A DNA stretch of 64,000 nt. Source: a virus. Positions within the stretch are counted from its first letter, which is position 1. Every line of letters starts with the position of its first letter. The stretch covers positions 8,100 to 72,099 of the IMG/VR virus record IMGVR_UViG_3300045988_121566; one strand, given 5' to 3'. Positions 363-64,000 of the stretch are shown here, piece by piece. Position numbers and translations under genes: made by a program. The notes beneath the pieces are model-generated. The model made no database searches, was not told the DNA's origin, and worked only from the letters and a program-made list of their open reading frames with translations.

Positions 363-392
363 TCTCCTATCTATCTATTCATTTAAAATCTT

Positions 393-41119: not shown

Positions 41120-41381
41120 GTGATAACATTTTTATATACATAAAATTTTAGCATTATTTTTCAGAAATCAGAACATTTTACATTTTTTTAATGAGTTAAT
41201 GGTTGTTTAAAAACTTGCACGGTTGAATAAGAATGAGTACATTTGCACTCGTCAATAGCAAACTCCACTTTGTGTTGGTTATTACTCAGTATGATAATAC
41301 CTGTGTTCAATAGGTTTCAAAATATGGGGGATTGATTAAATCGGTGGAGCGGTTTTTTCTTTCCCCTCTATTTTTTTCTTA

Positions 41382-42101: not shown

Positions 42102-42143
42102 TTAGATAGTAAAAAGTGCAGACTCTGAAATTTAATTGTAGGT

Positions 42144-42809
42144 ATGATTACAAATCAAGTAATGAAACGACCGATGGGAGACTTTTTGGTCGAGCAGAGA
42201 ACAAAAGATAGTATGTTCAATGCTACAAACTTGCTAAAACAGTGGAATGAAGCAAGTGGAGAGAAGAAGGAGATTACAAAATTCTTCGATAACGACAACA
42301 CAAAGGAGTTTATTTCTGCTCTGATGGAAGAAGAAAAGCTTAATACGCAAAATTCTGCGTATTTAAAAGCAAGAGGAAAAAACGGAGGAACTTGGATGCA
42401 TCCAATCCTCTTCGTTAAGTTTGCGATGTGGCTTAATCCTCGCTTCGAGGTTCAGGTTATCAAGTTCGTATACGACCAGATGCTGAAATACAGAAATGAT
42501 GCCGGCGACGCATATAAAGAACTCGCTTCGGCTATCGGAAAACTCGTTGACAAGAACTTCATGCACGCAGCAATGTGCAAAATGGCAAAGGCCATCAACT
42601 ATGTCGTGTTTGGCGAACATGAGCATGAGTTACGCAACAAGCATGGAGATGAGACTAAGCAATACAAATTGCTCGACATGGAACGTCAGGTTGCGAGACT
42701 CATCAATGATGGGTTTATCCGTACTTATGATGAGGCCATCATATATTTGCGAAAGAAATACGTTGAAAAGTATATGCCTGCTGCTCTTCGTACAAGATAT
42801 ATTGTTTAG
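42144..42809 (+). CDS. KilA-N domain protein
   Basis: MFNATNLLKQW...TKEFISAL...GGTWMHPILFVKFAMWLNPRFEVQV matches the KilA-N core (G-T-W-x-H-P...A-x-W-L-x-P-x-F). Confidence 0.7.
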   Translation: MITNQVMKRPMGDFLVEQRTKDSMFNATNLLKQWNEASGEKKEITKFFDNDNTKEFISALMEEEKLNTQNSAYLKARGKNGGTWMHPILFVKFAMWLNPRFEVQVIKFVYDQMLKYRNDAGDAYKELASAIGKLVDKNFMHAAMCKMAKAINYVVFGEHEHELRNKHGDETKQYKLLDMERQVARLINDGFIRTYDEAIIYLRKKYVEKYMPAALRTRYIV

Positions 42810-42927
42810 TTTTAAGGCAAAGTTAGATTTTTGGTTTTATCCAAGGCATTCATGGTTCGTGAGAATAGTGTTTGCCGCTTGCTTTTAAGATTAATCAGAA
42901 GAAACAAAAAAACAGGGCAGTCGCAAA

Positions 42928-43458
42928 TCACGACTGCCCTGTTGCCGTATTATCTCGTTCAAGTTTCTCCGCTATCGCTGTTCTAATCCAAAGAGACTTG
43001 TCGGGAAGCGACTGGAGATAATCGTATGTATCTGCGTTCACTCTTAGGGTTATAATGTGCTGTATGCTTTCCCTGCCCTTGCTTTTTCGACCAGACCCTG
43101 GGCGTGAGCCTCCTCGCCTTGATGTGCGTATTTTCGACACTTTTCCGTTTCGTGTCACGTTGTATTTAAGGATTAGGTTGTTGGTGGCTGCATCGTAAGC
43201 CTCTGCCGTTTTAGCCTCTGACGTGGCTCTGAGCATAGCTACAACAATATCAGCCAACTGGTCTTTCTTGTCGTACAGGATTTCGGTGTCGTCCACACAA
43301 CAGATTTCATCATAAAAATATACTACTGCTTTCTTTGTCATATCGAAAATAAAAAAGTGGGAGTTGGTTGGACTCCCGTTACCTTTTATGAAAAACCGAT
43401 TATAATGCTCAGGATGAACATGATCAGAATAAACCACTCCTGCTTGCTCATGATGCAC
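42928..43458 (-). CDS. hypothetical protein with a C-terminal ribbon-helix-helix-like domain (start uncertain)
   Basis: The C-terminus ITLRVNADTYDYLQSLPDKSLWIRTAIAEKLERD is RHH/CopG-like and is preceded by a basic Gly/Arg linker. An alternative ATG at 43341 is possible. Confidence 0.5.
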   Translation of the reverse strand: MHHEQAGVVYSDHVHPEHYNRFFIKGNGSPTNSHFFIFDMTKKAVVYFYDEICCVDDTEILYDKKDQLADIVVAMLRATSEAKTAEAYDAATNNLILKYNVTRNGKVSKIRTSRRGGSRPGSGRKSKGRESIQHIITLRVNADTYDYLQSLPDKSLWIRTAIAEKLERDNTATGQS

Positions 43459-43720
43459 CTCCTTCCTCTACTACTTCGATTGGCTTGATGTCGCTCACAG
43501 AATCGTCTTCAGTGAAAAAAGAAATTTTCATCGTCTCGCTGACGTATGCCATAGCGACTACTTCGTTGAGGCTGTTGCGGATGATGCAGATGTCTCCACG
43601 AACCTCGTTCTGAACCTTTAGGTACTTTACCACTGCATCCTTGACTGCGAGAGGGTTCATGACTCTCGTAATCGTCTCCCCTGACTGGGGGAAGACGAAA
43701 ATAAACTCTTGTTTCTTCAT
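43448..43720 (-). CDS. hypothetical protein (90 aa)
   Basis: ORF track with an ATG start. Overlaps both neighbours by a few nt (coupled). Confidence 0.5.
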   Translation of the reverse strand: MKKQEFIFVFPQSGETITRVMNPLAVKDAVVKYLKVQNEVRGDICIIRNSLNEVVAMAYVSETMKISFFTEDDSVSDIKPIEVVEEGGAS

Positions 43721-44886
43721 GCTGTCTTGATTTTAATTGTGTTGTTATTATTGTTATAGCTCTCGATGAGGGCTGCGCTTGAATTGACAAGTCGGAGCAC
43801 CTCATTATGCTGCTTGCTTATCTTGTTACAGCAGCCGTATGCCTGTATTACTTTCCCGCTTACAAGGTCGAACTCTACGGTCTCAACTCGCTTTCCGTCC
43901 TTGTCACGTACGGAGAAAATCAAAGAGTTCTTTCGATTGTAATACCTACAAGCGAACACGCAATTATGCATTGCCTCTCCCTCCTTGATAAACTCATCAA
44001 CGGATTTCAGCACCTCGCCAGTAAGTTCTCCGTCCGAAAGGAATATGCCGAAGAACTTCTGCTTCTCCTTGACGTATCGATCGTTGTCTTTGAGTGCTTT
44101 CTTCCTGCGCTCCTCATCTTTTGCTCTCTTTTTCTCTGCTTCCACTTTAGCAACATACTTGTCGTGCGCCTGAAGAAGATTGTCTGGGCATACATAGAAT
44201 GGGTTGTGCGTGTCCTTTCCGAGATAGACAAGCGTACTGATATAGTCAACATACATAGATACATCGCTGATGGCATAGCCGTGACGGATAGCAACCTTGT
44301 ATGCTGCCATATAAGGTTCTGTGTCACGCACGTATCTGTGGGCGTAAGCAAACAATGCTGGCGAAGCCTTGAAAAGAGTCTCCTCGAAGGGGTCATTCTT
44401 AGATAGTATCTTGTATATCTCTGCTCTATGCATTTCCTGCTGCGCTGCTTCCATATATGGCTCGCAATACTGGTATGTATCAACGAGAGACTTATTGTAG
44501 CAATAGTCGTAAGGTATGTCGATGCGCTGCGGGCGTATGGTAAGGTCTGATGAGTATGTAAATGCATCAAGACACCAACCCATAGTACGTCTGCGTGAAA
44601 GAGTTGTCTGCCGTGAACCTTTCTTGTTCCAAACCTGCTGCACCTCCCAAAGGGAGTATGATACCTCACGTTTGCGGTTGCGGTGTCGGGTGATGCGGAA
44701 ATACCTCAATACCTGATAGCCTCTGTAGGCTTGATTGATTACTGTGTATGTTCTTTCGTACATATCTTTATAATCGCATGTTCCGTAAGTCTGCTTGATG
44801 AGTTTCTGCTCATCACGACTGCAAATGCTACCCAGCTTTCTGGATAGCTTCACAATCTTCTCCTCGTTCTTGGTTCTTGGTTTCAT
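43717..44886 (-). CDS. PcfJ-like protein
   Basis: The C-terminal EGEAMHNCVFACRYYNRKNSLIFSVRDKDGKRVETVEFDLVSGKVIQAYGCCNK resembles the PcfJ-like domain signature (from memory). Sits downstream of a PcfK-like gene, as in Bacteroidota mobile elements. Confidence 0.5.
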   Translation of the reverse strand: MKPRTKNEEKIVKLSRKLGSICSRDEQKLIKQTYGTCDYKDMYERTYTVINQAYRGYQVLRYFRITRHRNRKREVSYSLWEVQQVWNKKGSRQTTLSRRRTMGWCLDAFTYSSDLTIRPQRIDIPYDYCYNKSLVDTYQYCEPYMEAAQQEMHRAEIYKILSKNDPFEETLFKASPALFAYAHRYVRDTEPYMAAYKVAIRHGYAISDVSMYVDYISTLVYLGKDTHNPFYVCPDNLLQAHDKYVAKVEAEKKRAKDEERRKKALKDNDRYVKEKQKFFGIFLSDGELTGEVLKSVDEFIKEGEAMHNCVFACRYYNRKNSLIFSVRDKDGKRVETVEFDLVSGKVIQAYGCCNKISKQHNEVLRLVNSSAALIESYNNNNNTIKIKTA

Positions 44887-49789: not shown

Positions 49790-50434
49790 CTTCTCTCCAT
49801 TCCTCATCATATACAGATAACCAGGATAGAAAAACACAAACAGAGAATACAGAGGGAAGGAAAGGAAAGAGGAGGAAAGGAAACAGGAAAACAGCATAAA
49901 AACACCTTCTAAAAGCCTTAATCCTATTTTGCGATAAATTCTGCGCAAACTTGAAGAACAAGCCTGGAAAGCAAGAAAATGGCTCTAAAATGACAAGAAA
50001 ACGCCCTTAAACGCCTCATAATTAGCGAATTTGACGAAAAACACGACCAATTACCCGAATATGCTGAAAATACGAGAGTTTTGGTTTGAATGATAGCTGT
50101 ATTACGTGATGAGATAGTATTTTTCATCATTCCTTGCGTGCGTGCGTACCTATTAATGCGACATGATTTTTTGGGCAAAAATTCTCTATGATAGAGAAAA
50201 GTAAAATATCGTTACATAAAAGTTGTGTTCACTCTCTGGAGGAGGTGAAACTAAAGTGCTGATAATGAGGTGTATAAGTTTTTGGTGTAAAAGTGCAAAA
50301 TGTTTACAAAGATAGACGTTTTGAGGGGTATTTTGATGGGCAAAGCCATGATTTGGGCCCCGACAAAAGGACTTGTGGGAGGAGGGTGGGAAATGTGTAG
50401 GGCTACAATGGAAAAAATGTGGGTCAAATATATA

Positions 50435-50442
50435 TATATTTG
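50435..50442 (+). promoter_or_regulatory. -7 promoter box (TATATTTG) for the 50.5-64 kb rightward operon
   Basis: TAnnTTTG match 38 nt upstream of the ATG at 50480. Confidence 0.4.
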
Positions 50443-50479
50443 CCGACAAAAATACATTGGTAAATTAATAATTGCAATT

Positions 50480-51199
50480 ATGATAGAAATCTTGACGAAA
50501 ATTCCAAAGAATTTAGGCGCTGCATCTCCAGTTCTCGGTGTTCGATGTGAATGGATAGCCACTGCGGCATTGTTGGCTGGCGGTGTTGCTTCTTCTATTT
50601 TCGGTGGCGCAAAGGCACGTAGGGAGGCAAAAAGGGCGGAGAGAGAGCGTAAGTACAGGGCAGCGGCAGAAAAGGCATGGTATGACAAGGAGTACAATAC
50701 CGACTACATCGACACAAAAGCTGGCCAAAACCTGATGAGGCGTGCGCAAGAGGTTCAGGACAGCTACGTCCGAAAGGCTGATGGTGCTGCTGCTGTTGGC
50801 GGTGGTACTGCTGCGGCTACAGCAATGGCGAAAGAAGCGGCTAACAAGACTATGGGTGACACGATAGCCAACATCGGGGCGAAAGACACTGCACGGAAGC
50901 AGCAAGTGGCTGATGCGCACTTCCAACACCAAATAGGACAGTCTCAGGAACGTGAGCAAGCCGCCATGCAGACCGCACAGAATACCAGTGAGGCGGCTCA
51001 GAATATGAGCAATGCTCTGTTCAAGGCGGGTGTGACCCAGTTGGGTTCAGAACCTAAAGTGTCTAAGTCGCTGAATGACAGGCTACAATCAAGTGACATG
51101 GGTAGTCGTGATAACACTGGTATAACATCTGCACTCGGAGAAAGTGCGGATGCAAGGCTTAAGAAGGTCACAGAGGGCGTTGATGGGCTGTTTGGATAG
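50480..51199 (+). CDS. hypothetical virion-type protein (239 aa, Ala/Gln-rich, one N-terminal TM segment)
   Basis: Track ORF (from 50300) trimmed to the ATG at 50480, downstream of the promoter box. WIATAALLAGGVASSIFGG is TM-like. The remainder is low-complexity and helical. Confidence 0.5.
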   Translation: MIEILTKIPKNLGAASPVLGVRCEWIATAALLAGGVASSIFGGAKARREAKRAERERKYRAAAEKAWYDKEYNTDYIDTKAGQNLMRRAQEVQDSYVRKADGAAAVGGGTAAATAMAKEAANKTMGDTIANIGAKDTARKQQVADAHFQHQIGQSQEREQAAMQTAQNTSEAAQNMSNALFKAGVTQLGSEPKVSKSLNDRLQSSDMGSRDNTGITSALGESADARLKKVTEGVDGLFG

Positions 51200-51432
51200 G
51201 CTTGATGCTTCGGTGGGAGCAGGAGACAAAGACGAGAGGTTATCGAGAGGAACGAGTGCCAAGAACATGGAGCAGGATGCGTACACAACCAAACCCAAAG
51301 GGGCACCCCCGTTGACCACCGTTTCAAACTATAGTAGATAAATACAAATATAAAAATGCGACCCACCACCCCCCATCTCCTTTTTATTTCGGTTTTCCGA
51401 TTTTCCACACCCTTATTTTTCTGGAAGTGTTA

Positions 51433-51738
51433 ATGAAGTTAAACTTAAAGATTATGAATATATTTCAGAGATTTATAAAGCGAATTGGCGGAGAAGACAA
51501 GGTATTGCACTTTGAAACTTGCTGCCTGATCACGATGGTTGTTGCTCTTTTGAATATGAACGTGCTCGGTCTGGGTACTACAGCTTCGGAAGTATCAGCC
51601 TGTATGATTTCGGTTATTGCCGGCATATCGAAGGAGGTATACGACTATAACACATACTGCTTGTTTGACAACAAGGATATAATAGCAGATGTATTTGGCG
51701 CATTTGCTGGTTTTTTAATCATTATTTTAATTGGATAG
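51433..51738 (+). CDS. hypothetical small membrane protein
   Basis: Three hydrophobic segments. The track start at 51427 is a GTG; ATGs at 51433 or 51454 are possible. Confidence 0.45.
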   Translation: MKLNLKIMNIFQRFIKRIGGEDKVLHFETCCLITMVVALLNMNVLGLGTTASEVSACMISVIAGISKEVYDYNTYCLFDNKDIIADVFGAFAGFLIIILIG

Positions 51739-51741
51739 ATT

Positions 51742-52743
51742 ATGACATTTGAAGAAGCAAAGAAGATATTGAAGAAAGAGTTTTTGGGAATTAGATTCAA
51801 GAAGTTCAACAAGCCTCTTAAATTTGAAGAAAAGCTATGGGTTCGTAATGAGAAGCCAGAGATTCTTGAAGCTTTGCGTATTGTGGCAAAGAATGGCATT
51901 AGTGTTTGCGTTCCAAAAGCAGCTCTTCGTATTCGCAGCATAATTACCAAGAAGATGAGGGCAGGAGAGGAAGCACTGTCTCCAGTTTCAGGCACTCCAT
52001 TGAGCGCATCAGAAGGAATAAAATTGCAGTGGAAAGACAACAAGAATACAGTCAAGAACCCTGCTCTTAAAGAAGCAGCCTCCCAGTTCAACGATGCTTT
52101 GTTGGATGAGCAGGGAAAGAAGATAAAGCGCTTCGGCAAAGAGATTGCCCGACTCAACAAGATTATCCGCAAGAAGAACTTGAAGATTGCAGAGAAGGAC
52201 GAGGTGATTGGCGACTTGGGCAAGGAGTTGAAGGCGCAGAAAGACTTGGTAGATCATATTAGTAAGCTACGTGATAGTGCCAAGATTAATCTTAATCTTC
52301 GCATGAAGGAATGCGAGAAGTTGAAAGAGAAGTTGGAAGAAGCAAACAATCTGGTTAAAGAGGTTCGTAAAGTTTCTAAGGAGTATTGTGAATACGGTAT
52401 TGCTGCTGAAAAGATGATTCAGAAGTTGGCTAAGATAATAGTTAGCAAAGGTCTCGCTCCTTCTGATGTCTTCGAGAAATGTCGTCTTTGGGCGAATGGC
52501 TACAGATTCAACCCTCAGCTTCCTGAGCTTAGCAAGGACGGCAATGGTATCTTCTACCATATTGCTGGGGTTGATGTTGCAGAGGAAGGCGCTGACCATA
52601 CTGGTGTAATGGTTCTATGCGGTAAGGATTTTGCTAAGATTCTTAAAGAGGACGAGGAAGCAGCAGAGGAACTTTCAAAAGTTCTCAATGACGTTATAGA
52701 CCGATTTCTTCTGTTTGGCGAAATTATTATTAAAGAAGAATAA
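51742..52743 (+). CDS. hypothetical coiled-coil protein (333 aa)
   Basis: ORF track with an ATG start 4 nt after the upstream stop. Long Lys/Glu-rich heptad-like region. Confidence 0.55.
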   Translation: MTFEEAKKILKKEFLGIRFKKFNKPLKFEEKLWVRNEKPEILEALRIVAKNGISVCVPKAALRIRSIITKKMRAGEEALSPVSGTPLSASEGIKLQWKDNKNTVKNPALKEAASQFNDALLDEQGKKIKRFGKEIARLNKIIRKKNLKIAEKDEVIGDLGKELKAQKDLVDHISKLRDSAKINLNLRMKECEKLKEKLEEANNLVKEVRKVSKEYCEYGIAAEKMIQKLAKIIVSKGLAPSDVFEKCRLWANGYRFNPQLPELSKDGNGIFYHIAGVDVAEEGADHTGVMVLCGKDFAKILKEDEEAAEELSKVLNDVIDRFLLFGEIIIKEE

Positions 52744-52746: not shown

Positions 52747-54066
52747 ATGCCAATAAACAATAACAAGAATACGCATATGAACAAAGGGAGAGTTACTATA
52801 ACGGAGCCTTCTCCTATGGTTCAGCAGATGGCGCAGCAGAATTACGCCATGAAGAATGGTGGAGAGCTGCCGATGCAGGGTGCGCCAGGAGGAGCTTCTA
52901 CACCTGTTGCTCCTCAGCCGATGGATATGAATTTCTTTGGTGGAAATGGAGGTGCAACTGGCAAGTTTGAGATGCCGGCTGTTGCCACAGCTCCCGACTT
53001 GACTCCAGAAAGCAAGGCCCCCGACCCAAAGTACGGAACAGGTGGTGCTCAGTTTGCCAATCCCTCTGGTATAGACAAGAAGGATTTGGGTTCGTTATCA
53101 GCAGCCTTGAACTCGGCAGGAGTATCTTCTCCTTCTTCTGGAAGGGAGTTTAAAGCCGATGATACAAAGAAGGATGGCGGTTTCTTTGGCTGGATAAAGG
53201 GGATTGCTCCAAAGTTTAGGCCTGGAATACGTGATGGAGAGACAGACGAAGAGTACGATATGCGGAATACACAAAATATGCAGCGTTTGGCCACCTTTGC
53301 GGATGCTATCCGTCACATGGGTAATATCGTGAACACTTACAAGGGAGGACCTTTGCAGCGATTTAATGACCCTACGGACTACATCTTGGAAGGCTACGAG
53401 AAGCGCAAGGCGGAACGTAGACAGCAGGATGCAGCTGATGCGGATGCGGCTTACAAGCAGGCAACTCTCAATTTGAAGGAACGTGCTGCTGAGGCTAAGA
53501 ACGCCTACGACCAGTTGAACCTGTTGCTTAAACAGAATGGAGTGACTCTAAGTAAAGACAAGTTCGACTACCAGAAAGCCAAGGATGCTGCAGCCGCAAA
53601 AGCTAAATCCGAAAAGGATGAAAGAGACTTCAAGTACAAACAGGAGCGCGATAAGGTAAAGGACAAACAGACAGAAAAACGCCTTGGCATTGCAGAATAC
53701 AATGCTACCCACAAGGGACGAGGAGGTGGAGGTCGCTCTGGAAGTGGTGGTGGTAGCTCGTCTGCTAAATACATAACTTGGGATGCAGAAGGCAATCCTC
53801 ATTACGCATCAAATAAGACAATGTATGAAGCAAATGAAGCTTACTACAATGGAAATACTTCTGGCAATTCATCTACTTCAAACAGCAAGGAAGTGCTCAA
53901 TAGGGATGGCTCTACTACAAGAATCACCAACAGACAAAGCGGTTCTTCTGTTGCACAGAGAGCAGGAATGCAGCGAAGACAGAGGGAAGAAGCCAGAAAG
54001 AGAGCATCAAAGCCTGCCGGCAAGTCGAAGAATGGCTATAAGAATACAAAGAAACTTGGATTATAA
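52747..54066 (+). CDS. hypothetical low-complexity basic protein (439 aa), virion-internal candidate
   Basis: ORF track. Gly/Ser/Lys/Arg-rich tail (GRGGGGRSGSGGGSSSAKY...). Lies immediately upstream of the giant ORF. Confidence 0.55.
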   Translation: MPINNNKNTHMNKGRVTITEPSPMVQQMAQQNYAMKNGGELPMQGAPGGASTPVAPQPMDMNFFGGNGGATGKFEMPAVATAPDLTPESKAPDPKYGTGGAQFANPSGIDKKDLGSLSAALNSAGVSSPSSGREFKADDTKKDGGFFGWIKGIAPKFRPGIRDGETDEEYDMRNTQNMQRLATFADAIRHMGNIVNTYKGGPLQRFNDPTDYILEGYEKRKAERRQQDAADADAAYKQATLNLKERAAEAKNAYDQLNLLLKQNGVTLSKDKFDYQKAKDAAAAKAKSEKDERDFKYKQERDKVKDKQTEKRLGIAEYNATHKGRGGGGRSGSGGGSSSAKYITWDAEGNPHYASNKTMYEANEAYYNGNTSGNSSTSNSKEVLNRDGSTTRITNRQSGSSVAQRAGMQRRQREEARKRASKPAGKSKNGYKNTKKLGL

Positions 54067-54083
54067 ACATTAATATATAATAT

Positions 54084-57000
54084 ATGGCTGGAGATAAATT
54101 TGACCAACTTTACAACGCCTTGAAAGCTGATGGCGCAGTTACAGGAACGAGAGAGCATTTCAGAAAGTTCGTGTATGCGCCTGGCAAGCAGGGCTATCAT
54201 AACAGAAAGCAGCTCTATGATGCTCTTCATGCTGATGGTGCTGTTTCCAGTAATTCCTATGAGGAGTTTGCGCAACGGCTTGGACTCCATGCTGTAAATC
54301 CGAAGCCTCAGCAGAAGCCAGTAGCACAGAAGCCTATGACAACAGCACAGAGAGCAATGCAGGTTCCTCAGCAGTATCAGAGGACACAATTAGGCAAGGC
54401 TCCAAAGAGTGCCCCAAAGAACGCTTCTCCTTTCGTGCAGTCTTTGTATGATATTGATGATGCGCAGAAGGGAGCAGGTTATCCAGTTGACTATACTTCA
54501 CCTAAGGCTACCCAGCAAGTGTATCAGCAAAATCAGCGGATAAGAAGACAGGCGGCAAAGACTGCTGCAAAAAAAATAGACAGACAGGCAAGTCATGCTC
54601 AACCTATCATGCAGACAAATACACCTGCTGATACTTATATAGGTAAGACTGAGGGGCAGTTGATGGACGAAATGAACCAAAGTGCAAACGCTTTGGTTGG
54701 TTCTGAAATGGGCGATTATCTCGATAAGGTTATAGGAGACGAGTTCAAGGCGGCTCATGCAAGAGGACTTGCAGCGTTGAGTGCAAACAGTGGAGTTCAT
54801 GGTACTGGTGGTGCAGACTGGTGGATTGGTGAAAGAGCTTACCAAAATCAAATGGATCAAGATAAGCAGCTTCAAGAAATCACAGGGAACATACAGAAGA
54901 ATATAGAAAGTATCTTCTCTAACCCAAAGGTTAAGCAGAGAGTGTTGTCTGATGCTCAAAAACTCGGAGTTTCCCCAGAGACATATATTGAAAGTTCACT
55001 TGCACCAGCCCTGATAGAGAAAGCCGGAAAACAATTCAATAATACTCAGCTTAACCGCATGATGGCAAAGGGTGCATCTGACTATATTGCAAGCGGCATT
55101 CTTAATTCTCTCACTGGAACATTGCTTACTGGTCTTACTTCAACTAAAAGTCAGAGGCAAATGCAGCAGCAAGCAGATACAATGACAGAAGAGGGGTTGA
55201 ATCCAAACTATAAACCGGGCACTTGGGCAAAAGCATCAAAAGGAGCTGTGGCTTTTGCAGCAGATGCGCCTTGGTATAATCTCGCTGGTATCGGAGCTGG
55301 AGCTTTGACAGAAAAGGTTTTTGGTAATGCAGCTCAGCAGATGGCGAGAGTGGCTAACCAGTCTTTGAGACAGAGGGTGTTTGAAGGTGTAGCAAGAGGC
55401 ATTGTTCATGGAGGAGCTACAGGCTTTCAATATGGAGCCATCAACGGAGCCGTTCAGAACTATTCTACAGGAGAAGATACTTCGCTTTTGGGAACTTTGA
55501 AAGCAGCAGCCAAAGGTGGATTGGAAGAAGGTGTTAGCTTTGCTACTATGGAAGGCATGGGTGGCGCAGTTGGAGCTTTTGGACATGGCATTGGTCTTAA
55601 AGGAACGGAAAAGACGTGGAAGCAGAGAGTTAACAAAATGGGGCAAAAACTTACCTATGAAGGCATTAAAACTGGTATGGAAGGTATCGGTATGGCTACA
55701 GGTGGGGTTGCTTCAAGCTATGCTAATCATATTCTTACTGGTGATGACTGGCACGGTTTCTCTACAGAGGGAACACTTGAATCTTGTGCGAGTGCTGTCA
55801 TCTTTAAACTTACCCATGCGAAAGACTTATTCAAAAAGGAAACAGATAGAAACGGCAAGCCATTCAGCTTTACCAGCAATATTGCCCAAAAGACTGCAAG
55901 ATTTTTCTTGTCTGGCGAGACAAAATCAGCACCTCATGTTTTTTCTGACGAGGAGAAACATCAGTTGTTTGCTGCTGGTTCTGAGTTAGGAATGAAGCCT
56001 ATGGAGAATATTGTCAGCTGGGCAAAGCAGGCTAAAAAATACAGATCTGATGATATTGAGAAGAGCGAGGATGGTTCAGATCTACTCAATAACTATCAGC
56101 AAATCATGCTTGACCCAAATGTTTCTTGGGATGCCAAGGCAAAATTTACTACTATGGTCATGGGTACAATGCCTGAGTCTCGTCCTATGATGGACCATAT
56201 ATCCTATGGAACAGAAGATGGAACAGATGGAGACAATCGCATACATACTTATAAGACCGTGAACGAGTATGCTGCTGACGGAACACTTTTGTCAAAACAC
56301 AGATTTGACACAAAAGACAAGAGGGAGTCTATCATTTACGAAATAGGTGTAAGAAAAGAGGAGTTGCGTTCTAAGAATGCTCTTGCTCTGTTGGTTGGCT
56401 TAGATAGAAACAATTATGACTTGCAAAATTCTTTCTTTAAGAAGAATGCGAAAGACTTGGAGCAGGTTCAAGAGATTGTTGAAGGTATGCAAACAGGCGG
56501 CTCAAAAATAGACCATCAGTTTACGGAGTATGTATTAAATTCTGAAAGAGGTTCTTTCTTGCCTATCGTTGATGCTGTGGCAAGCAAAAATGGTATGGAT
56601 AGAGAAAGTATGCTAAAGGCATTTGATAAAGACCCAATGAAGCGAAGTGATGAAGAGCAGAATGCTTGCGTTCAGCTTAGAAAGGCTATAGAAATGTCTG
56701 TGTTCCCGGCAAATAAAGTTCATGAAGAACAGAGTGTCATGGATGGTAAAGATGTCGCAACAGACAACAACCTTGGAACTGAGCAGCCAAATGGCGGTGC
56801 AGTTAAAGCAGAGCTTGACGGGTTGAGACAGGCTGAGGCTGAAATGGATGAGCTTATGCGTGATAATGATGTATTCGGTCAGAATTTCCAAAAACTGAAA
56901 CAACAGGGTTTGACAAATCCGCAGATTTATGACTGGATGGTTCAGCAGGGAGGTTTAACTGTTGAGCAATTAGAACCATTTGTTCACTATATCAATGCGA

Positions 57001-60000
57001 ACGCAAGAGTGCAGGGTATGCAGGAGGCTACCAAGAACGCCATTGACGAACAGGTTTCTTCTTATGTTCAGGACTGGTCTTTCCACGGAACATTGAACGG
57101 GCAGGAAAAGAATGGCGAACAGGCGATTTACGTGCAGGACAGCAACGGAAGAACGCTTCTTGTTGGTACTGGTGAAGTGGCTTTTGACACAACTACAGGA
57201 AGGGCAAAGGAAGGCGTTGGTGATATGCTTGTATGTCTTGACCAAAAGACAGGCGAGACAGTATATGTCAAGTCAGACGAAGTGAAGTTTGTTGGCACAC
57301 AGAGTGCAGACGATTTTGCTAATGGGTATCGTCAGGAGTTGCAGATGAAGAACTCTGAGCCTTACAATCAGGCAGCGCAGGAACAGGCGATGCAGGATGC
57401 TGCAAAGCCTCAGCCAGAGGAGAAATCTAAAGATGATGCCGCAAAAGGTGGTGATTTAACAAAAGATGATACGACTTTAACAAAAGTTGATACCACATCT
57501 GGAAAAGATAATACCACAAGCGAGGACTTAGTACCACAAGAGCAGCCTCAGCAGGCCCGAAAGTTTGCAGATGGTTCTGATGTTCCTATGACAAAGGACA
57601 GCAAGGGAAGACCTACACCAGACTATGAGAAAATGACTCCTGAGCAGAGCGCAGAGATTCTTACTGAGGACTTCGGGGAGAATGCCGATAAGGTGGTGGA
57701 CGGACAGATTCAGAAAGCAGAAAAGGCTTTGAAGGATGCCGAGAAGATAAAGGTGGACTATACCGCCGAGCTTAACGACATCATGGAGCAGGAGGCTTTG
57801 AAGAAAAAGACCGTTGAGGCTGCCAAGAAAAAGCTGGAGCACGCTCAGAATGTCAAGAAGAATATGACCGCCAAGAAGGTTGCAGAGACTGTGGGTAACA
57901 CAGAACAGACTGAGGGTGCTCATGAGGCTGGCAGCGTGGCCGCGCAGAAGTTTGAGAATGCACCAAGACTTGTGGGCAATAAGCGCACAAGAATGCTTCC
58001 TGACGGAGAGACTAAGATCAAGGGACACTATGAGATTGTTCCGGCTGAAAGTCTTACTCCTTCTCATGATGTGAATAATGGCTACAAGAAATCTGAGGGA
58101 TTCCCTACCGATGCAGAGGGAAGAACCGTTAATGACCGTGACTACGAGCACGACAAGGCGGCTCAGCAGAATACGGACCAGATTGCCAGGAAGTATAACG
58201 GTATGGCTATCGAGCAGGTGCCAGTGGTATCTGACGAGGGTATCGTATATGATGGCAATGGTAGAACTATGGCAGGACAGAAGGCAGCAAAGGAAGGTAC
58301 GGATGGAGAATACATCAACGACCTCTTAGAGAATGCCGAGAACTTCGGCTTTACAAGAGAGCAGATTGAGCAAAGCGGAATCGAGCACCCACGTCTGGTA
58401 TTGGTGACCGATGAGAGATTACCATACGATACAGCTACCTTCTCCAAGTTCAACCGCAACGAGAAGAAGACGCAAAGTAATACCGAACAGGCAGTAGCCA
58501 AGGCCAAGACGTTGACTTCTGACGAAGTAGGCGCTATTGTAGCCGAGATTGAGGGAAGCGGCTCTCTCGATGCTTTCTTTAACAATTCCAAGGCAATAAA
58601 TGACTTGGTTAAGACGTTAGTAGATAAAGGCATCATCGGACAGAACGAGGTGGCGCAGATGATGGATAGTCCTGAGCGCCTTTCTGCACAAGGCAGGGAG
58701 TATGTGAAGAACCTTCTCCTTGGTTCCATCTTTAAGCCAGAGACTATCAGAATGCTTGGCATCGACTCTGCGGTGAAGAATAAGGCTATCAACGCTATCC
58801 GTTCGGTAATGGATAATATGAAACTTGGCGATTACTCTCTTCGTGATGAGATTGACCAAGCCATCCAGTTGCTCTATGAGGCAAGACAGGGTGGCAATAA
58901 GGTTGATACACTGCTGAGAACACCGGATATGTTCGGTGAGGACGCAGCAAAGCGTTATCCTTCTATCTCTCAGATGATGGCTTTAGCCTTGGAGGGCAAG
59001 GTTTCTGATTTCAGAGATTTGCTTGATGAGTACAACAGAATTGCCGCTTCAAGAAATACTGGTGAGGGCAATATGTTCGAGGCTGCTCCTACCAAGGAAG
59101 AGTTGATAAACGAGTATTTAAACTTTAAAAAATGGCAAGATTATGGCACAGGACATTCAGAAAATGAAGGAGGCAATGATGTTTCAGGCATTCAAGAACC
59201 TAAACAAGAAACATCAGGAGGAAATGGATCAGCAGGAGAAGGAGCAGAACCAGAGCGACCAAGAGTAGAAGAGACTGGCGATAAGGAACTTGGAGCTACC
59301 AAAGTTTCAGCTAATCCTAAAGCTACAATTTCTGAAAGAAAGCAGGCTTTGCTTGACAGGATTGCCAGTGGAACAGTTAAGAGGAAGGATGAGGCTTGGG
59401 GTATGCTTGCCGATGCTGAGGAGCTTTTGGCAGAGTACTATGGTATTCCGTACGATGAATATGGCGGCCGCCAAAGAACCAGCAGCACCACTATAGACAT
59501 CGTTCTTAATCTCTACACAAAGGGTGTTCTTGACAAGATTACTGACGAACCTATCCCTTCCGCCACTGAGAAACAGATGAATTATCTGATGAAGTTGGCT
59601 AAGGGAGAGCATTTGTGGGAGTCTGGGCTTGAGGGTATGATTCCTAATAAGAGGCAGGCAAGTTGGTTGATTAACGCAATGAAGGGTTTGGGTGATGAAT
59701 ACTTATTGAGTATGCACCCTGACGAAATCGAAGAGAGAGAAAGGGAGATTTATAAGGGCATCGACCTTGTAAGAAAAGCCAATGGTGCAAATTCTTATGA
59801 TTGGAACCGTATGCGTCTCCTTCCAAGAGAAGAGAAGACAGACCCTCAGTTTAACCCGATTGAGGCTGCTGCCGCTGAATTTAAGAAAGAGCATCCTCTG
59901 ACTGAGGAGGAAATCATGAAGTCTGACGTGGATGATTTATCCAAGGATATGGCTTTGGACTATCTGAACGGAGAAGTGACAGATGATTTGCACCGTGCAA

Positions 60001-63000
60001 TCTACGAAAGCATCTATGCTAAACGTAAGGAATTGAATGCTGAGCAAAAGGTTGACACTTCTAAAACAGAACCATCTGCTAATCCTATTGAAGAAATCAA
60101 GAATGCAGCAGAAGGATTCGAGAAGGAGAAGAAAACGAAAATAGAACAGGGCGAAAAGCCTCAGCAGAAAGCAGACGATGCAGCGGTATCAGCTTCAAAC
60201 AAAAAGGTCAACGACCTGTGGAAAGAACTTATGAATGCTGGTAAGGATGAGGTTTCTTCTTCCTTTATCGGTCTTAATTCAAGACAATTAGAGGTGTTGC
60301 CTAAACTGGTGAGTGCAATGGCAGAGAATGCTTACCTTAGAATTAAGAGAGGTATGCACAATCTTGAAGACGTAGTAAAGGAAATGCGTAAGGAGTTTGC
60401 TCCTGCTGCCAAGATTTTCAAGAAAGAAGATGTGGATGCTATCTACGAGCAGATGATGAATATTCGCTATCGTGATGGCGAGCAGCGCATGAGCTTGAAG
60501 GACTGGGCTGACTACTACGAGAAGACTTCTCCTAAGCATCAGGAGAATCTGGTTGGTGACTCCAAGAATGCCGAGGAAAGAAAGCAGAAGGAGAATAGCT
60601 TCATCAACCGCATTCAGACAGTTCTTTCTATGGGAGAATTTAAGACTGGCATTGCGGGTATGAGAAAGATTGCCGAAGATTGTGGTCTTGAAGGCACTAA
60701 GGATACCGACTTACAAGAGTTGGTGGAAACCGCTGTTGTAGGAATGGCAAGGCGGTATGCTTCAAGCAAGGCTATGAGTGATGATGTTAAGTTTGCAAAG
60801 ATAAAGCTTCTATATAACAGACAGCCTTCACTCAACCAGCGTGATTCTGAGCGAGTGATGAAACAGCAGTATTCTACCCCTGCCCCTTACGCTTATCTCG
60901 CAGATGTGTATGTGAAGGGTAACGGCAAGGAGATAAAGAGTGCGCTGGAGCCAAGTGCAGGCAATGGTATGCTTACCATCGGCTTGCCAATGGATAAGGT
61001 GCATGTGAACGACATTGATGCTCAGAGATTGGAGAACCTGAGAAGACAGGGCTTCAAGAACGTGACCAGTCAGGACGGAACCCAGCCTTTTGCAGACAAG
61101 GACGTTGACGTGGTGGTAACAAATCCACCATTCGGAAGTGCAATCCCTAAGGAGTATGACGGCTATAAGATTTCTTCTTTGGAAGGACAGATGGCTATCA
61201 ACGCCCTGGAGAGCATGAAGGATGATGGTCGTGCTGCCATTATCATCGGCGGAAAGACAGAATACGCCAAGAACGGAAGCCTGAATCCGAAAGATAAGGC
61301 TTTCCTTGGTTATCTCTATAGTCACTATAATGTGGAGGACGTGATTAATGTGGATGGTAGTCTCTATGCAAAGCAGGGAACTTCTTATCCTACACGTATT
61401 ATATTAATAAACGGAAGACGCTTGGACGAGAATATTTTTCCTCCTGTAAAGGATAAGGCAAGAGCGGAAACCGTGAAAGATTATGACGAACTTTATAAAC
61501 GAATTGAAGATGATATACTACGAAGTGAACGGATGGATTCTTCCATCGGAGGAGAAACAAGAAGTGCTCAACCAGAACTTGATCAACAAGGCGCTGCTGG
61601 TACTCCTAAAGAGAGAGTACGAGCAGGAGAACGAGGAGGAAGCAAACCAGATGGTGAGCGAGAGCCTGACCTATTTGACTCCACTTCCGTATCAGGAACC
61701 CATGATGACTTGGAAAATCAACGAGGAACCGAGCCAAGACAAGATGGAGGACTTCCTAATGGAGATAGTAGAGCAGACGGAACAGGGACAGAGCCTTCTC
61801 CAAGCAAAGAACCAACCGCTGGAACCAATGAGCAGCGAGGAAATGGATCAGGAGGAGCTGGACGGAATGACGCTCAGCCAAGTACTGATGAATCTACCAA
61901 CGCCGGGAGCGGAAGCGGACCACGGGGACAATTACAGCGGGTGGACAAATCCGTACGTGGACTAAGCACCGAGAAAGTTACTTACGACCCTAAGAGTGAA
62001 AATCCATTCACTCTGAAAGCTGTTATGCCTGCCGATCAGCAGGAGGCGGTTAATAAGAATCTTGAAAAGTTGGGCGATGCCGACCAGTTCCTTGTTGACG
62101 AACTGGGCTATAACGATAAGGACGATTTGTATTCTCATCTTGCCGCAGAGCAGGTTGACTCTGTAGCCCTTGCCTTGCAGCAGGCAAAGAAGGGCAACGC
62201 CTTTATTATCGGCGACATGACCGGTATCGGTAAGGGAAGACAGGCTGCTTCGCTTATCAGATACGCCAAGAAGCAGGGTCAGGTTCCTGTGTATTTCACC
62301 AAGACAGCAGGATTGCTGAGCGATGTTTATCGTGACTTGGTGGATATTGGCAGCCCAGACCTAAGACCATTTGTATTCGGTAGTGCCAAGGAAGCTGCCA
62401 TTACCGACTCAGACGGAAAAGTGGTATTTGCTTTGCCATCGAAGAGTGAGGTGAAGCGAGTGCTTGATTATGTCGAAAAGAACGGAAAACTTCCAGACGA
62501 ATACGATTATGTATTGACTACTTACAGCCAAGTAAGCAATGGAGTCTACGAGTTTGACGAGAATGGTGCCCGAAAAGAGAAGAAACTTGCGAAGGGTAAG
62601 ACATTCGGCGCTGCTGCCCTTAGCGGACAAAGAAGACGTGATGCTATAGAAAAACTGATGGACAACGCCTATCTTATCCTTGACGAAAGCCATACGGCTG
62701 GTGGCAATAGCGGTCAGGGCAACTATTTCCAACACATTATTCAGAAGGCAAAGAACGTTACCTTCTTCTCTGCTACCTTTGCCAAGCGACCAGACAATAT
62801 GCCTATCTACGCTTTGCGTACTGCTATGAATGAGGGCGGTATGAAATCATCCGACTTGATTGATGCGGTGAAGCGTGGTGGCGCAACCTTGCAGGAAATC
62901 ATGAGCCAGACCTTGACACAATGCGGTCAGATGATTCGCCGTGAGCGAGATATGACTGGCGTAACCATCGACTGGAAGGCTATTGATGATCCTGGGCGAG

Positions 63001-64000
63001 TGCAGGAGCAGCGAGAACAGTATGATAGTATCATCGGATTGTTTAATGATATTATCAATTTCCAAAAGAAATATGTTTCAAGTTACGTGGATGAGCGTAA
63101 TGAGGAGCTGGCTGCCATTCAGTCTACCATTGGAATCAAAAAGGGAACGGCTGCCCTGGGAATTAAGAACCAGCCATTTGCCAGCAAGGCATTCAATACC
63201 GTTCAGCAGGTACTTCTCTCCTTGAAAGCGAAGTCTGCTGCAGAGCGTGCCATCGACTATTTGAAGCAGGGCATGAAGCCTGTGATTGCGTTGAACAATA
63301 CCAACGAATCTCAGACTGGCAACCTTGCGCTTGGTGAGGAAATGGACGCACCAGACTTGGGTACATCTTTGAAGAAGGGTCTTGAAGGTACACTTCGCTA
63401 TACCAAGAAGGATGCAAAGGATAATAGTGAAAGCGGCTACATCAAGCTTTCGGATTTGGGTGATGAGGCTGTTGAGGCTTATCACGAACTGGAAAAGAAG
63501 ATTGAGCAGACAAGTACAGGTCTTTCACTCTCCCCTATTGATGTTATCAAGAACGAGTTGCAGAAGGCAGGTTATAAGGTAGGCGAACTAACCGGTAGAC
63601 AGACCGAGTTCGTTTATAACGACAACGGAACTGTTACCAAGGTTAAGCGTGCTGATACAGACAAGAAGAAACTCGCGCGCGACTTTAACGATGGTAAGAT
63701 TGATGCGCTTATTCTCAACAAGAGTGCAGCAACTGGTATTTCCCTTCATGCTTCGAGCAAGTATAAGGACCAGAAGAAGCGTGTAATGATCGTGGCTCAG
63801 CAGCAGCTTGACGTGAATGATGAGGTTCAGATGCGTGGGCGTATCGACCGAACAGGACAGGTTGCAAGAGGTGCATACGAATATGTTGTTTCTCTTATTC
63901 CTGCAGAGCAGCGATTGTTGATGATGTTTAAGGCTAAGCTGAAGTCACTTGATGCCAACACAACTTCTTCTCAGAAGAGTAAGTTCAACGAAATGGAAGT
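54084..64000 (+). CDS. giant multidomain (polyvalent, DarB-like) protein, 3'-truncated by the window edge (more than 3,305 codons)
   Basis: Not in the ORF track because no stop occurs before the window end. The ATG at 54084 follows an in-frame TAA at 54078. I read the frame by eye to 64000 without meeting a stop. The frame was re-verified at DGNGR (58251), NPPF (61122), GIGKGR (62223) and DESH (62682). No + strand track ORF exists in this frame. Confidence 0.9.
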   Translation, partial: MAGDKFDQLYNALKADGAVTGTREHFRKFVYAPGKQGYHNRKQLYDALHADGAVSSNSYEEFAQRLGLHAVNPKPQQKPVAQKPMTTAQRAMQVPQQYQRTQLGKAPKSAPKNASPFVQSLYDIDDAQKGAGYPVDYTSPKATQQVYQQNQRIRRQAAKTAAKKIDRQASHAQPIMQTNTPADTYIGKTEGQLMDEMNQSANALVGSEMGDYLDKVIGDEFKAAHARGLAALSANSGVHGTGGADWWIGERAYQNQMDQDKQLQEITGNIQKNIESIFSNPKVKQRVLSDAQKLGVSPETYIESSLAPALIEKAGKQFNNTQLNRMMAKGASDYIASGILNSLTGTLLTGLTSTKSQRQMQQQADTMTEEGLNPNYKPGTWAKASKGAVAFAADAPWYNLAGIGAGALTEKVFGNAAQQMARVANQSLRQRVFEGVARGIVHGGATGFQYGAINGAVQNYSTGEDTSLLGTLKAAAKGGLEEGVSFATMEGMGGAVGAFGHGIGLKGTEKTWKQRVNKMGQKLTYEGIKTGMEGIGMATGGVASSYANHILTGDDWHGFSTEGTLESCASAVIFKLTHAKDLFKKETDRNGKPFSFTSNIAQKTARFFLSGETKSAPHVFSDEEKHQLFAAGSELGMKPMENIVSWAKQAKKYRSDDIEKSEDGSDLLNNYQQIMLDPNVSWDAKAKFTTMVMGTMPESRPMMDHISYGTEDGTDGDNRIHTYKTVNEYAADGTLLSKHRFDTKDKRESIIYEIGVRKEELRSKNALALLVGLDRNNYDLQNSFFKKNAKDLEQVQEIVEGMQTGGSKIDHQFTEYVLNSERGSFLPIVDAVASKNGMDRESMLKAFDKDPMKRSDEEQNACVQLRKAIEMSVFPANKVHEEQSVMDGKDVATDNNLGTEQPNGGAVKAELDGLRQAEAEMDELMRDNDVFGQNFQKLKQQGLTNPQIYDWMVQQGGLTVEQLEPFVHYINANARVQGMQEATKNAIDEQVSSYVQDWSFHGTLNGQEKNGEQAIYVQDSNGRTLLVGTGEVAFDTTTGRAKEGVGDMLVCLDQKTGETVYVKSDEVKFVGTQSADDFANGYRQELQMKNSEPYNQAAQEQAMQDAAKPQPEEKSKDDAAKGGDLTKDDTTLTKVDTTSGKDNTTSEDLVPQEQPQQARKFADGSDVPMTKDSKGRPTPDYEKMTPEQSAEILTEDFGENADKVVDGQIQKAEKALKDAEKIKVDYTAELNDIMEQEALKKKTVEAAKKKLEHAQNVKKNMTAKKVAETVGNTEQTEGAHEAGSVAAQKFENAPRLVGNKRTRMLPDGETKIKGHYEIVPAESLTPSHDVNNGYKKSEGFPTDAEGRTVNDRDYEHDKAAQQNTDQIARKYNGMAIEQVPVVSDEGIVYDGNGRTMAGQKAAKEGTDGEYINDLLENAENFGFTREQIEQSGIEHPRLVLVTDERLPYDTATFSKFNRNEKKTQSNTEQAVAKAKTLTSDEVGAIVAEIEGSGSLDAFFNNSKAINDLVKTLVDKGIIGQNEVAQMMDSPERLSAQGREYVKNLLLGSIFKPETIRMLGIDSAVKNKAINAIRSVMDNMKLGDYSLRDEIDQAIQLLYEARQGGNKVDTLLRTPDMFGEDAAKRYPSISQMMALALEGKVSDFRDLLDEYNRIAASRNTGEGNMFEAAPTKEELINEYLNFKKWQDYGTGHSENEGGNDVSGIQEPKQETSGGNGSAGEGAEPERPRVEETGDKELGATKVSANPKATISERKQALLDRIASGTVKRKDEAWGMLADAEELLAEYYGIPYDEYGGRQRTSSTTIDIVLNLYTKGVLDKITDEPIPSATEKQMNYLMKLAKGEHLWESGLEGMIPNKRQASWLINAMKGLGDEYLLSMHPDEIEEREREIYKGIDLVRKANGANSYDWNRMRLLPREEKTDPQFNPIEAAAAEFKKEHPLTEEEIMKSDVDDLSKDMALDYLNGEVTDDLHRAIYESIYAKRKELNAEQKVDTSKTEPSANPIEEIKNAAEGFEKEKKTKIEQGEKPQQKADDAAVSASNKKVNDLWKELMNAGKDEVSSSFIGLNSRQLEVLPKLVSAMAENAYLRIKRGMHNLEDVVKEMRKEFAPAAKIFKKEDVDAIYEQMMNIRYRDGEQRMSLKDWADYYEKTSPKHQENLVGDSKNAEERKQKENSFINRIQTVLSMGEFKTGIAGMRKIAEDCGLEGTKDTDLQELVETAVVGMARRYASSKAMSDDVKFAKIKLLYNRQPSLNQRDSERVMKQQYSTPAPYAYLADVYVKGNGKEIKSALEPSAGNGMLTIGLPMDKVHVNDIDAQRLENLRRQGFKNVTSQDGTQPFADKDVDVVVTNPPFGSAIPKEYDGYKISSLEGQMAINALESMKDDGRAAIIIGGKTEYAKNGSLNPKDKAFLGYLYSHYNVEDVINVDGSLYAKQGTSYPTRIILINGRRLDENIFPPVKDKARAETVKDYDELYKRIEDDILRSERMDSSIGGETRSAQPELDQQGAAGTPKERVRAGERGGSKPDGEREPDLFDSTSVSGTHDDLENQRGTEPRQDGGLPNGDSRADGTGTEPSPSKEPTAGTNEQRGNGSGGAGRNDAQPSTDESTNAGSGSGPRGQLQRVDKSVRGLSTEKVTYDPKSENPFTLKAVMPADQQEAVNKNLEKLGDADQFLVDELGYNDKDDLYSHLAAEQVDSVALALQQAKKGNAFIIGDMTGIGKGRQAASLIRYAKKQGQVPVYFTKTAGLLSDVYRDLVDIGSPDLRPFVFGSAKEAAITDSDGKVVFALPSKSEVKRVLDYVEKNGKLPDEYDYVLTTYSQVSNGVYEFDENGARKEKKLAKGKTFGAAALSGQRRRDAIEKLMDNAYLILDESHTAGGNSGQGNYFQHIIQKAKNVTFFSATFAKRPDNMPIYALRTAMNEGGMKSSDLIDAVKRGGATLQEIMSQTLTQCGQMIRRERDMTGVTIDWKAIDDPGRVQEQREQYDSIIGLFNDIINFQKKYVSSYVDERNEELAAIQSTIGIKKGTAALGIKNQPFASKAFNTVQQVLLSLKAKSAAERAIDYLKQGMKPVIALNNTNESQTGNLALGEEMDAPDLGTSLKKGLEGTLRYTKKDAKDNSESGYIKLSDLGDEAVEAYHELEKKIEQTSTGLSLSPIDVIKNELQKAGYKVGELTGRQTEFVYNDNGTVTKVKRADTDKKKLARDFNDGKIDALILNKSAATGISLHASSKYKDQKKRVMIVAQQQLDVNDEVQMRGRIDRTGQVARGAYEYVVSLIPAEQRLLMMFKAKLKSLDANTTSSQKSKFNEME
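58020..58300 (+). other. ParB/Srx-like domain within the giant ORF
   Basis: KGHYEIVPAESLTPSHD...VPVVSDEGIVYDGNGRTMAGQKA has the ParB-like nuclease/NTPase-fold pattern (motif D-G-x-x-R). Confidence 0.5.
60864..61420 (+). other. N6-adenine DNA methyltransferase domain within the giant ORF
   Basis: QQYSTPAPYAY...LEPSAGNGML (SAM-binding motif I) ... DVVVTNPPFGS (motif IV, NPPF). Confidence 0.8.
62196..64000 (+). other. strawberry-notch/SNF2-like superfamily-2 helicase domain within the giant ORF (continues past the window)
   Basis: GDMTGIGKGRQ (Walker A), LILDESHTAGG (DExH), VTFFSATFAKRPDNM, SAATGISLHA and EVQMRGRIDRTGQ (motif VI). Confidence 0.75.

Follow-up and report, generated by a model that had tools for sequence, protein, structure and literature searches.

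A giant open frame at the end of the window

We analysed a 64,000-nt stretch of viral DNA (positions 8,100 to 72,099 of IMG/VR record IMGVR_UViG_3300045988_121566; hereafter, the window), in which the + strand carries, from an ATG at position 54084 to the window end, a single frame encoding the 5' part of a predicted giant polyvalent protein. An initial inspection made without database searches (the sequence-only reading) had described this frame and the TAA at 54078 that precedes it, and retranslation of positions 54078-64000 bore both out: 3,305 sense codons follow the ATG, the last complete one at 63998, and the TAA at 54078 is the sole stop, none lying in frame between 54084 and 64000. The gene had escaped the list of open reading frames (ORFs) made for the window, which shows only short off-frame and antisense ORFs from 54.0 to 63.6 kb, because the lister omits frames that run off the window end; ORF callers that drop edge-truncated frames miss what is here the largest gene of the genome. 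Each of the ten motifs quoted in the sequence-only reading lies exactly where it had been placed, including DGNGR (58251), NPPF (61122), GIGKGR (62223), DESH (62682), ATGISLHA (63729), and QMRGRIDRTGQ (63828), as well as three Gly/Ala-rich strings (55287, 55548, and 55683).

Scanning IMG/VR with the helicase segment of the protein returned 80 related loci at 88-99% identity, all on viral contigs, which reach 79.8 kb and in many cases measure 65-80 kb. The frame is intact in all 80 of them and spans 5,083-6,087 codons, except in five copies cut by or at the locus end. In the closest relative, designated L002 (~96% nucleotide identity to the window in alignable blocks), the ORF encodes 5,224 amino acids (aa) from its ATG, and from this relative we estimate a full length of ~5,300 codons (~590 kDa) for the gene in the window. 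The 9.9 kb originally given as the scale of the gene consequently fell short: the relatives put the full gene at ~16 kb, of which the window holds ~62%. Further, L002 20184-21899 matches window positions 1-1720 at 94.8% identity, and in the relatives these first 1.7 kb of the window lie ~2.2 kb past the giant gene (the window wraps; L002 11900-20183). The window therefore represents 64 kb of a circular or permuted genome of ~72.3 kb, and the 8.3 kb absent from it include the final ~6 kb of the giant gene, which occupies ~22% of the genome.

Met-1 and the bulk of the first ~70 residues show little or no variation among distant homologues, so we take the ATG at 54084 to be the real start codon; of the 76 relatives of full length, most begin with the same sequence (MAGDKFDQLY...). 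The possibility that the frame is an artefact or a pseudogene in decay would be in keeping with the state of the sole isolate-genome copy found, in Segatella copri GCA_003439165.1 (contig QSUX01000029, locus L086, 6983-22379), which is split into at least seven called ORFs by frameshifts inside conserved segments. This copy looks like a decaying prophage or the result of assembly errors; naturally unfused genes were considered as an explanation for it and ruled out, as the breaks interrupt conserved segments in the way frameshifts do. The copies on viral contigs, in contrast, are intact, and this difference fits a function in infection rather than in lysogeny. We note that a run of 3,305 stop-free codons has a chance probability, from base composition, of ~1e-90, and that stops number 57-304 in each of the remaining five frames. 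Together with the significant Pfam matches detailed below, this refutes the artefact explanation, to which we assign a negligible probability. We conclude from the intact frame and the invariant catalytic motifs that the giant gene is real and under selection.

Domain organization of the giant protein

Pfam searches gave significant matches to ddrB-ParB, N6-adenine DNA methyltransferase (MTase), and AAA_34/Helicase_C_4 models. The C-terminal part, which lies outside the window, was read from L002, where LPD38 (PF18857) was found at the C-terminus (E 1e-26; 94.7 bits against a cut-off of 27). In the study that defined polyvalent proteins, DdrB-ParB and LPD38 are confined to the phage type (Iyer et al. 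2017), and the presence of ddrB-ParB, MTase, AAA_34/Helicase_C_4, and LPD38 in one ORF therefore points to a large polyvalent protein of this type. LPD38 settles the "polyvalent protein" label that the sequence-only reading had applied, and we assign the predicted ~5,300-aa product to this known class.

The ddrB-like ParB/Srx domain (aa 1310-1435; 58011..58388, + strand, as are all features of the giant gene) matches PF18763 with E 4e-11 (43.4 bits against a cut-off of 27.6), in agreement with the ParB/Srx-like module first proposed around DGNGR, a motif that holds the conserved Arg of GxxR and is kept in 70 of 77 sequences. The MTase domain (gamma-type; aa ~2250-2450; 60831..61433) was likewise recognized correctly from its motifs: EPSAGNG (motif I, aa 2289) and NPPF (motif IV, aa 2347) are invariant in all 77 sequences, and the domain, searched on its own, scores above the Pfam thresholds for MTS (24.7 against 23) and N6_Mtase (20.8 against 20.4). 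Its match to PDB entry 1ne2 (E 0.0015) was the only one, and a weak one, in the PDB sequence search. Between the MTase and the helicase lies the expected low-complexity linker rich in Gly, Ser, Arg, and Glu (aa ~2480-2650; 61521..62033), in which aa 2501-2600 contain 6% hydrophobic residues. The helicase (aa 2651-3299; 62034..63980) is of the Strawberry-notch (Sno) type of superfamily 2 (SF2), as the DExH motifs had suggested, and comprises AAA_34 and the start of Helicase_C_4 (PF13872, 52.2 bits, and PF13871, 66 bits, both over cut-off), with GIGKGR kept in 75 and DESH in all 77 of the 77 sequences. It runs past the window end, and the rest of Helicase_C_4 was found in L002.

The regions between these domains are partly conserved and partly exchangeable. 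A conserved helical region follows the ParB domain (aa 1436-1729; 58389..59270; no family or fold match), and another helical region precedes the MTase (aa 1912-2249; 59817..60830; no family match), within which homology to gp3 of the Bacteroides phage BS-TP4 begins at aa 2190. Between the two, alignment of the relatives delimits a variable payload slot (slot 1; aa 1730-1911; 59271..59816). The block that occupies it in the window is rare among the relatives, with alignment gaps of up to 84%, and other relatives carry inserts of 300-770 aa there. Over the whole protein, inserts of 290-860 aa among the 80 relatives fall into two fixed slots (L002 aa ~1729-1815 and ~3766-3900), and these inserts account for the range of 5,083-6,087 codons within one species-level cluster. 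Most inserts have no Pfam domain; those of the relatives L067 and L081 carry LPD3. Further, what follows the N-terminal module in its homologues is ddrB-ParB, LPD13, or PBECR2. Pfam searches with tiles of aa 1-1320, 1430-2250, and 2450-2700 and of the L002 tail returned only MTase, Helicase_C_4, and LPD38, and the remainder of the giant protein had no match in Pfam, in PHROGs of known function, or among PDB sequences, so that ~2,000 aa of the in-window protein are without a known domain or fold.

The protein opens with an N-terminal tag (aa 4-70; 54093..54293) made of two copies of a nearly invariant ~33-aa repeat (LYxALKxDG...YEEFxxxLG), which AlphaFold2 (AF2) modelled as helix-loop-helix units with a predicted local distance difference test score (pLDDT) of 66-82. 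With a hidden Markov model of the repeat, 28 hits of at least 2,000 aa were obtained, among them the giant protein itself and gp55 of the Bacteroides phage BKO1-TP3, and every one has the tag at residues ~5-70. A search of 1.84 billion cluster representatives with the N-terminal 1,150 aa yielded no more than 172 related clusters, many of which match the tag alone. Tandem copies of the repeat also make up the C-terminal ends, predicted to be extracytoplasmic, of short Bacteroidales proteins that bear lipoprotein signals or membrane anchors (some of them H..C..CxxC proteins); in one case, the repeat tail comes after a Ser/Thr kinase domain and a transmembrane segment. The repeat is carried by proteins P0079, P0121, P0123, P0147, P0158, P0165, P0190, P0192, and P0193 and by locus L087 (4009-4542); P0121, which is 65% identical to the tag, is encoded in a chromosomal context, with NrfA/NrfH, TilS, and radical-SAM genes around it. 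No Pfam model covers the ~33-aa unit, which, judged by sequence comparison, is an undescribed repeat family.

Behind the tag, BLASTP comparison with the relatives revealed a hypervariable module (aa ~100-850; 54381..56633), with ~50-56% identity in relatives whose MTase and helicase are 86-98% identical and no alignment at the DNA level. The allele in the window is present in three of 76 relatives only (L002, L006, and L078). The ORF that ends 17 nt before the giant gene (52747..54066, + strand; 439 aa, of low complexity and rich in Ala, Gly, Lys, Asn, and Ser) is present in all relatives and co-varies with this allele, near-identical copies being confined to the same three; both regions therefore move as one cassette. 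Within the module, Gly/Ala-rich helical segments (aa 326-561; 55059..55766) lie where the sequence-only reading had seen hydrophobic stretches, although their hydrophobicity turned out to be only weak. AF2 modelled them as long helices, with pLDDT below 50 over most of aa 379-587. A conserved helical region follows (56634..57533), in which AF2 predicted a small SH3/Tudor-like β-barrel (aa ~1001-1074), the only recognizable fold element in the models of aa 1-2250; profile comparison with BS-TP4 gp3 also picked out this region, weakly, and nothing else in the N-terminal 1,150 aa. Pfam and the PDB gave no match to the N-terminal ~1,150 aa. The AF2 models of aa 1-1150 and 1151-2250 are mostly helical with a mean pLDDT of ~58 (58.6 for the second), and the best BFVD matches of the N-terminal model were N-terminal pieces of giant "Podoviridae sp." proteins and tape-measure proteins, at low TM-scores.

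At the other end of the protein, the C-terminal 1,125 aa match 335 cultured-phage records, including Stx/933W-like phages, Ralstonia, Bcep22-like Burkholderia, and Vibrio phages, three Bacteroides phages, and a Methanosarcina virus. Gly/Ala-rich hydrophobic segments occur in the C-terminal ~1,200 aa as well. The motif WHEVVGHKGMRELFG (HExxH; L002 aa 3976) is conserved in 68 of the 80 relatives and in both BS-TP4 and BKO1-TP3, and no Pfam metallopeptidase (MPTase) model matched its region at E≤0.1. A zincin-like metallopeptidase for processing is a frequent but non-obligatory component of phage-type polyvalent proteins (Iyer et al. 2017).

Known giant phage proteins and the proposed role in infection

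Giant polyvalent proteins take up about one fifth of the genome in several phage lineages, and their delivery and activities are almost unstudied. The account that we favour for the protein described here, and regard as probable with considerable room for doubt, is that it is packaged into the virion and ejected at infection, a conserved chassis delivering an anti-restriction payload. Giants with LPD38 are known as Bcep22 gp75 and JC1 gp69 ("DarB-like") and as phi24B gp47 with its 933W homologues. The C-terminal module aligns with that of phi24B gp47 (vb_24B_48; 2,807 aa) at E 6e-37 and ~26% identity over ~530 aa. This protein is abundant in virions by mass spectrometry, is not seen in the cryo-electron microscopy map, and has been proposed to be an encapsidated ejection protein; it has neither MTase nor helicase, whereas the giant protein has both. 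JC1 gp69, from a Bcep22-like phage (4,515 aa, with MTase, helicase, LPD3, and LPD38), is a virion protein detected with 51 unique peptides by mass spectrometry. It resembles the giant protein in its central MTase and helicase, in LPD38, and in its share of the genome (22.1%, against ~22% here). Virion packaging, which had been proposed from the sequence alone, is thus supported by homology to phi24B gp47 and by the LPD38 of JC1 gp69, that is, indirectly.

The giant gene is the final gene of a tightly spaced five-gene + strand block. Upstream of the 439-aa ORF, positions 50300..52743 (+ strand) hold three ORFs of 299 aa (Ala/Gly-rich), 101 aa (hydrophobic), and 333 aa (Lys/Glu-rich) with no informative family hits, the last two junctions being 3-nt gaps. 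Low-complexity ORFs precede the giant gene in LPD38 phages as they do here, and JC1 gp67 and gp68, encoded directly upstream of gp69, are virion-associated. The 439-aa protein is a candidate virion partner of the giant protein. The idea of an operon of internal-protein-like genes accordingly stood as far as tight coupling and low complexity are concerned, but not as regards homologues, since the upstream ORFs showed no similarity to phi24B vb_24B_43-47 or to BS-TP4 gp1-2.

These data also bear on the possibility that the protein is never packaged and works late, in the cytoplasm, as an enzyme complex whose substrate is either progeny DNA, to be methylated or processed ahead of packaging, or the DNA of the host, with LPD38 a sign of ancestry only. 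The sequence itself offers no proof of encapsidation, a protein of ~590 kDa would be heavy to carry, and a second MTase-like ORF recognized by eye (24989-25822), if real, would indicate that soluble enzymes modify DNA in this phage. However, the C-terminal homology to a virion protein confirmed by proteomics, the LPD38 shared with JC1 gp69, and the tight low-complexity gene block, like that formed by gp67 and gp68 before gp69, all argue against it, as does the placement of DdrB-ParB domains beside late virion genes (Iyer et al. 2017). We consider a purely cytoplasmic role improbable.

The closest cultured relatives are the Bacteroides phages BS-TP4 and BKO1-TP3, described as temperate gut phages in those parts of the source article drawn on here (Gut Microbes 2025, PMC12694917), which also report a diversity-generating retroelement (DGR) in BS-TP4; giant genes are not discussed in these passages. 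BS-TP4 gp3 (5,391 aa, annotated "hypothetical protein") is collinear with the giant protein from the MTase to the end, at 39.5% identity over aa 2190-3844 and 27% over aa 4044-5263. It shares ddrB-ParB, MTase, Sno helicase, and LPD38 and has an extra InPase domain; its N-terminal ~1,100 aa are unalignable by BLAST, with one weak profile match (aa 856-1069). The similarity of BKO1-TP3 gp55 (5,553 aa, annotated "DarB-like antirestriction") to the giant protein is confined to aa 4-113 and aa 4044-5231. Four giants were compared for Gly/Ala-rich, weakly hydrophobic segments (the giant protein, BS-TP4 gp3, BKO1-TP3 gp55, and phi24B gp47), and each has them close to its two ends. Gene order differs: in BS-TP4 and BKO1-TP3, the giant gene stands immediately before the portal gene, whereas here the portal gene (10873-12885) is ~43 kb away. 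Other features set the giant protein apart from the Bcep22/JC1 and phi24B/933W giants. First, its helicase is of the Sno type, which Iyer et al. (2017), in describing the MTase-helicase dyad, noted in "a few instances" only. Second, no lytic transglycosylase, LPD1/LPD5, or MuF-C domain was detected in the giant protein with Pfam. Third, the N-terminal ~1,150 aa belong to a small family (the 172 clusters noted above), and the host belongs to the gut Bacteroidota.

P1 DarB (2,255 aa), a virion-packaged anti-restriction protein with which the giant protein had been compared from the outset, combines an N6-adenine MTase (EPSAGxG ... N[PV]PFG) and an SF2 helicase by the same logic. In the MTase motif region, the two are 29% identical (pairwise E 4e-4). 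DarB's helicase, however, is SNF2-rel plus Helicase_C, not Sno, LPD38 was not detected in DarB, and a tblastn search with aa 1-3000 against 50,697 phage records that include P1 did not return P1. Orthology was rejected, since just two short segments align (E 3e-4 and 4e-4) and the helicase families differ. The comparison therefore holds for a functional analogue and fails for an orthologue, the MTases being only distantly similar, and we regard DarB, as far as alignment can tell, as the former.

In the scheme that we propose, the giant gene would be expressed late, as the last gene of its block; its position and spacing are observed, and its timing is presumed. The protein would then be packed into the capsid, by analogy with homologues that proteomics detected in virions, and at infection would be ejected with or ahead of the DNA. 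The conserved ends, namely the N-terminal tag, the helices rich in Gly and Ala (aa 326-561), and the C-terminal ~1,200 aa with HExxH and LPD38, would form the delivery chassis, serving packaging and either passage through the Gram-negative envelope or formation of a conduit in it. The middle, whose parts are swapped among relatives, would be the payload, with activities predicted from its families: the ddrB-type ParB domain, the N6-adenine MTase, and the Sno helicase would work in cis, moving along the incoming DNA and either methylating it or obstructing type I/III restriction enzymes, in the manner of P1 DarB. The ParB-like domain may bind DNA or NTP or nick DNA, and the HExxH module may process the polyprotein into separate active parts.

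Packaged as it may be, the protein could instead be primarily structural, a tape-measure-like ejectosome forming a trans-envelope conduit for a short-tailed virion, with its enzymes serving genome delivery: the Sno helicase would pull the DNA in, the ParB domain would bind DNA ends or act as a pilot, and the MTase would be minor or regulatory. PTXU04_00025, a protein of an Escherichia coli phage in which LPD38 is the only confident annotation, is required for efficient infection, and phi24B gp47, an abundant virion protein that lacks MTase and helicase, has been proposed to form a conduit. Further, the viral fold matches of the N-terminal model include tape-measure proteins, and no separate tape-measure or sheath protein was called among the window ORFs scanned. 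The infection phenotype, the fold matches, and the lack of a called tape-measure protein count equally in favour of the account that we prefer. The middle domains, however, swap freely (ParB, LPD13, PBECR2, InPase, and LPD3), as expected of accessory effectors and not of a core motor, and MTase-helicase dyads are linked to anti-restriction in P1 DarB and to restriction-modification-like systems. This alternative, which overlaps with the reading that we favour and differs from it solely in the purpose of the middle domains, seems to us rather unlikely.

Several points weigh against ejection of an anti-restriction payload. Packaging is deduced from ~26% identity across ~530 aa within the C-terminal module, and that module lies beyond the window and is known through a relative only. 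BLAST homology to P1 DarB is limited to the MTase motif region and one helicase motif. In PDB fold searches, the AF2 models of aa 1-2250 gave no match at E≤0.001, and the fold match of the ParB domain is weak (best ParB match 5k5d, E 0.68, probability 0.2, from a low-confidence AF2 model with pLDDT 58.6). The Gly/Ala-rich segments have a single Kyte-Doolittle peak above 1.0, and this weak hydrophobicity, together with their pLDDT below 50, makes their membrane insertion speculative. The upstream ORFs have no informative family hits, so that nothing marks them as DarA/Hdf-like packaging partners.

Proteins of this class, the domains they draw on, and their association with virions are in the published record, and current understanding of them is unchanged; unreported are the host-envelope-like N-terminal tag, the hypervariable cassette, the payload slots, and the ~2,000 unannotated residues. 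The 80 near-complete variants separate the chassis from the payload slots and the N-terminal cassette and so constitute a natural mutagenesis data set. Combining these features, we tentatively consider, as an idea with perhaps a modest chance of being right, a modular chassis with a host-related tag, a hypervariable cassette, and two payload slots, a trio not previously described together. The tag may be of host origin and could be an envelope- or periplasm-binding module, or a capsid-targeting one, that docks the first-ejected end. The region of aa ~100-850 could, with the 439-aa gene, determine host-strain specificity after adsorption, as a cassette matched to the diverse envelopes or defences of S. 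copri, and the two internal slots would exchange anti-defence payloads inside one phage species.

The source phage and other genes of the window

Homologues of the N-terminal part occur in metagenome-assembled genomes of Segatella/Prevotella copri and in one isolate, and S. copri, a gut bacterium, is therefore the likely host. The window carries a portal gene (phrog_156, E 1e-49) and terminase-like, integrase, and HNH matches, and a tail fibre and a reverse transcriptase were also matched; with its portal and terminase-like hits, the genome that carries the giant gene has the hallmarks of a portal-terminase phage. We conclude that the source is a ~72-kb temperate, DGR-bearing phage, most likely of Segatella/Prevotella copri, so that a clear example of a giant polyvalent protein is now at hand in a common temperate phage of a major, hard-to-study human gut bacterium. 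A near-identity DNA search against cultured phages found no match, and in a protein homologue search conducted by pieces all matches were shorter than 2,000 aa, the closest ones being fragments. Membership in the "Quimbyviridae" was considered (~75-kb genome, DGR, and Prevotella host) and could not be established; that group is described as related to myovirus lineages, and its paper mentions no giant gene.

The DGR is complete and lies on the - strand at 2114-5885. It consists of a reverse transcriptase gene (2114-3280; phrog_1423, E 7e-77), a 95-nt pair of template repeat (TR; 3323-3417) and variable repeat (VR; 3935-4029), and a target ORF (3930-5885; 651 aa). All 14 mismatches between TR and VR fall at a T of the + strand template (A on the coding strand). 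The VR is at the 3' end of the 651-aa ORF, which adjoins the tail-fibre gene (5898-6656). The DGR was considered as the source of the N-terminal hypervariability of the giant protein and rejected, as the only TR/VR pair targets ORF 3930-5885.

Positions 39613-44886 form a lysogeny and accessory block, with a tyrosine integrase that has an Arm-DNA-binding domain (39613-40752, - strand), a helix-turn-helix protein (41382-42101), a KilA-N protein (42144-42809), and a PcfJ-like protein (43717-44886, - strand). PcfJ is better known from conjugative elements. Two further - strand ORFs were recognized by eye: one at 20155-20658 appears to encode a multi-pass membrane protein with a rhomboid-like GLSG motif, in a position similar to that of a BS-TP4 ORF annotated as rhomboid, and the separate small DNA MTase-like ORF at 24989-25822 has the motif DLPYG. 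Finally, a 912-aa ORF that follows the terminase-like gene (17349-20087, + strand) matches phrog_32516 (unknown function) at E 2e-84 and, weakly, the "internal virion protein" family phrog_511 (E 2.5e-4), and may encode a second internal or ejection protein.

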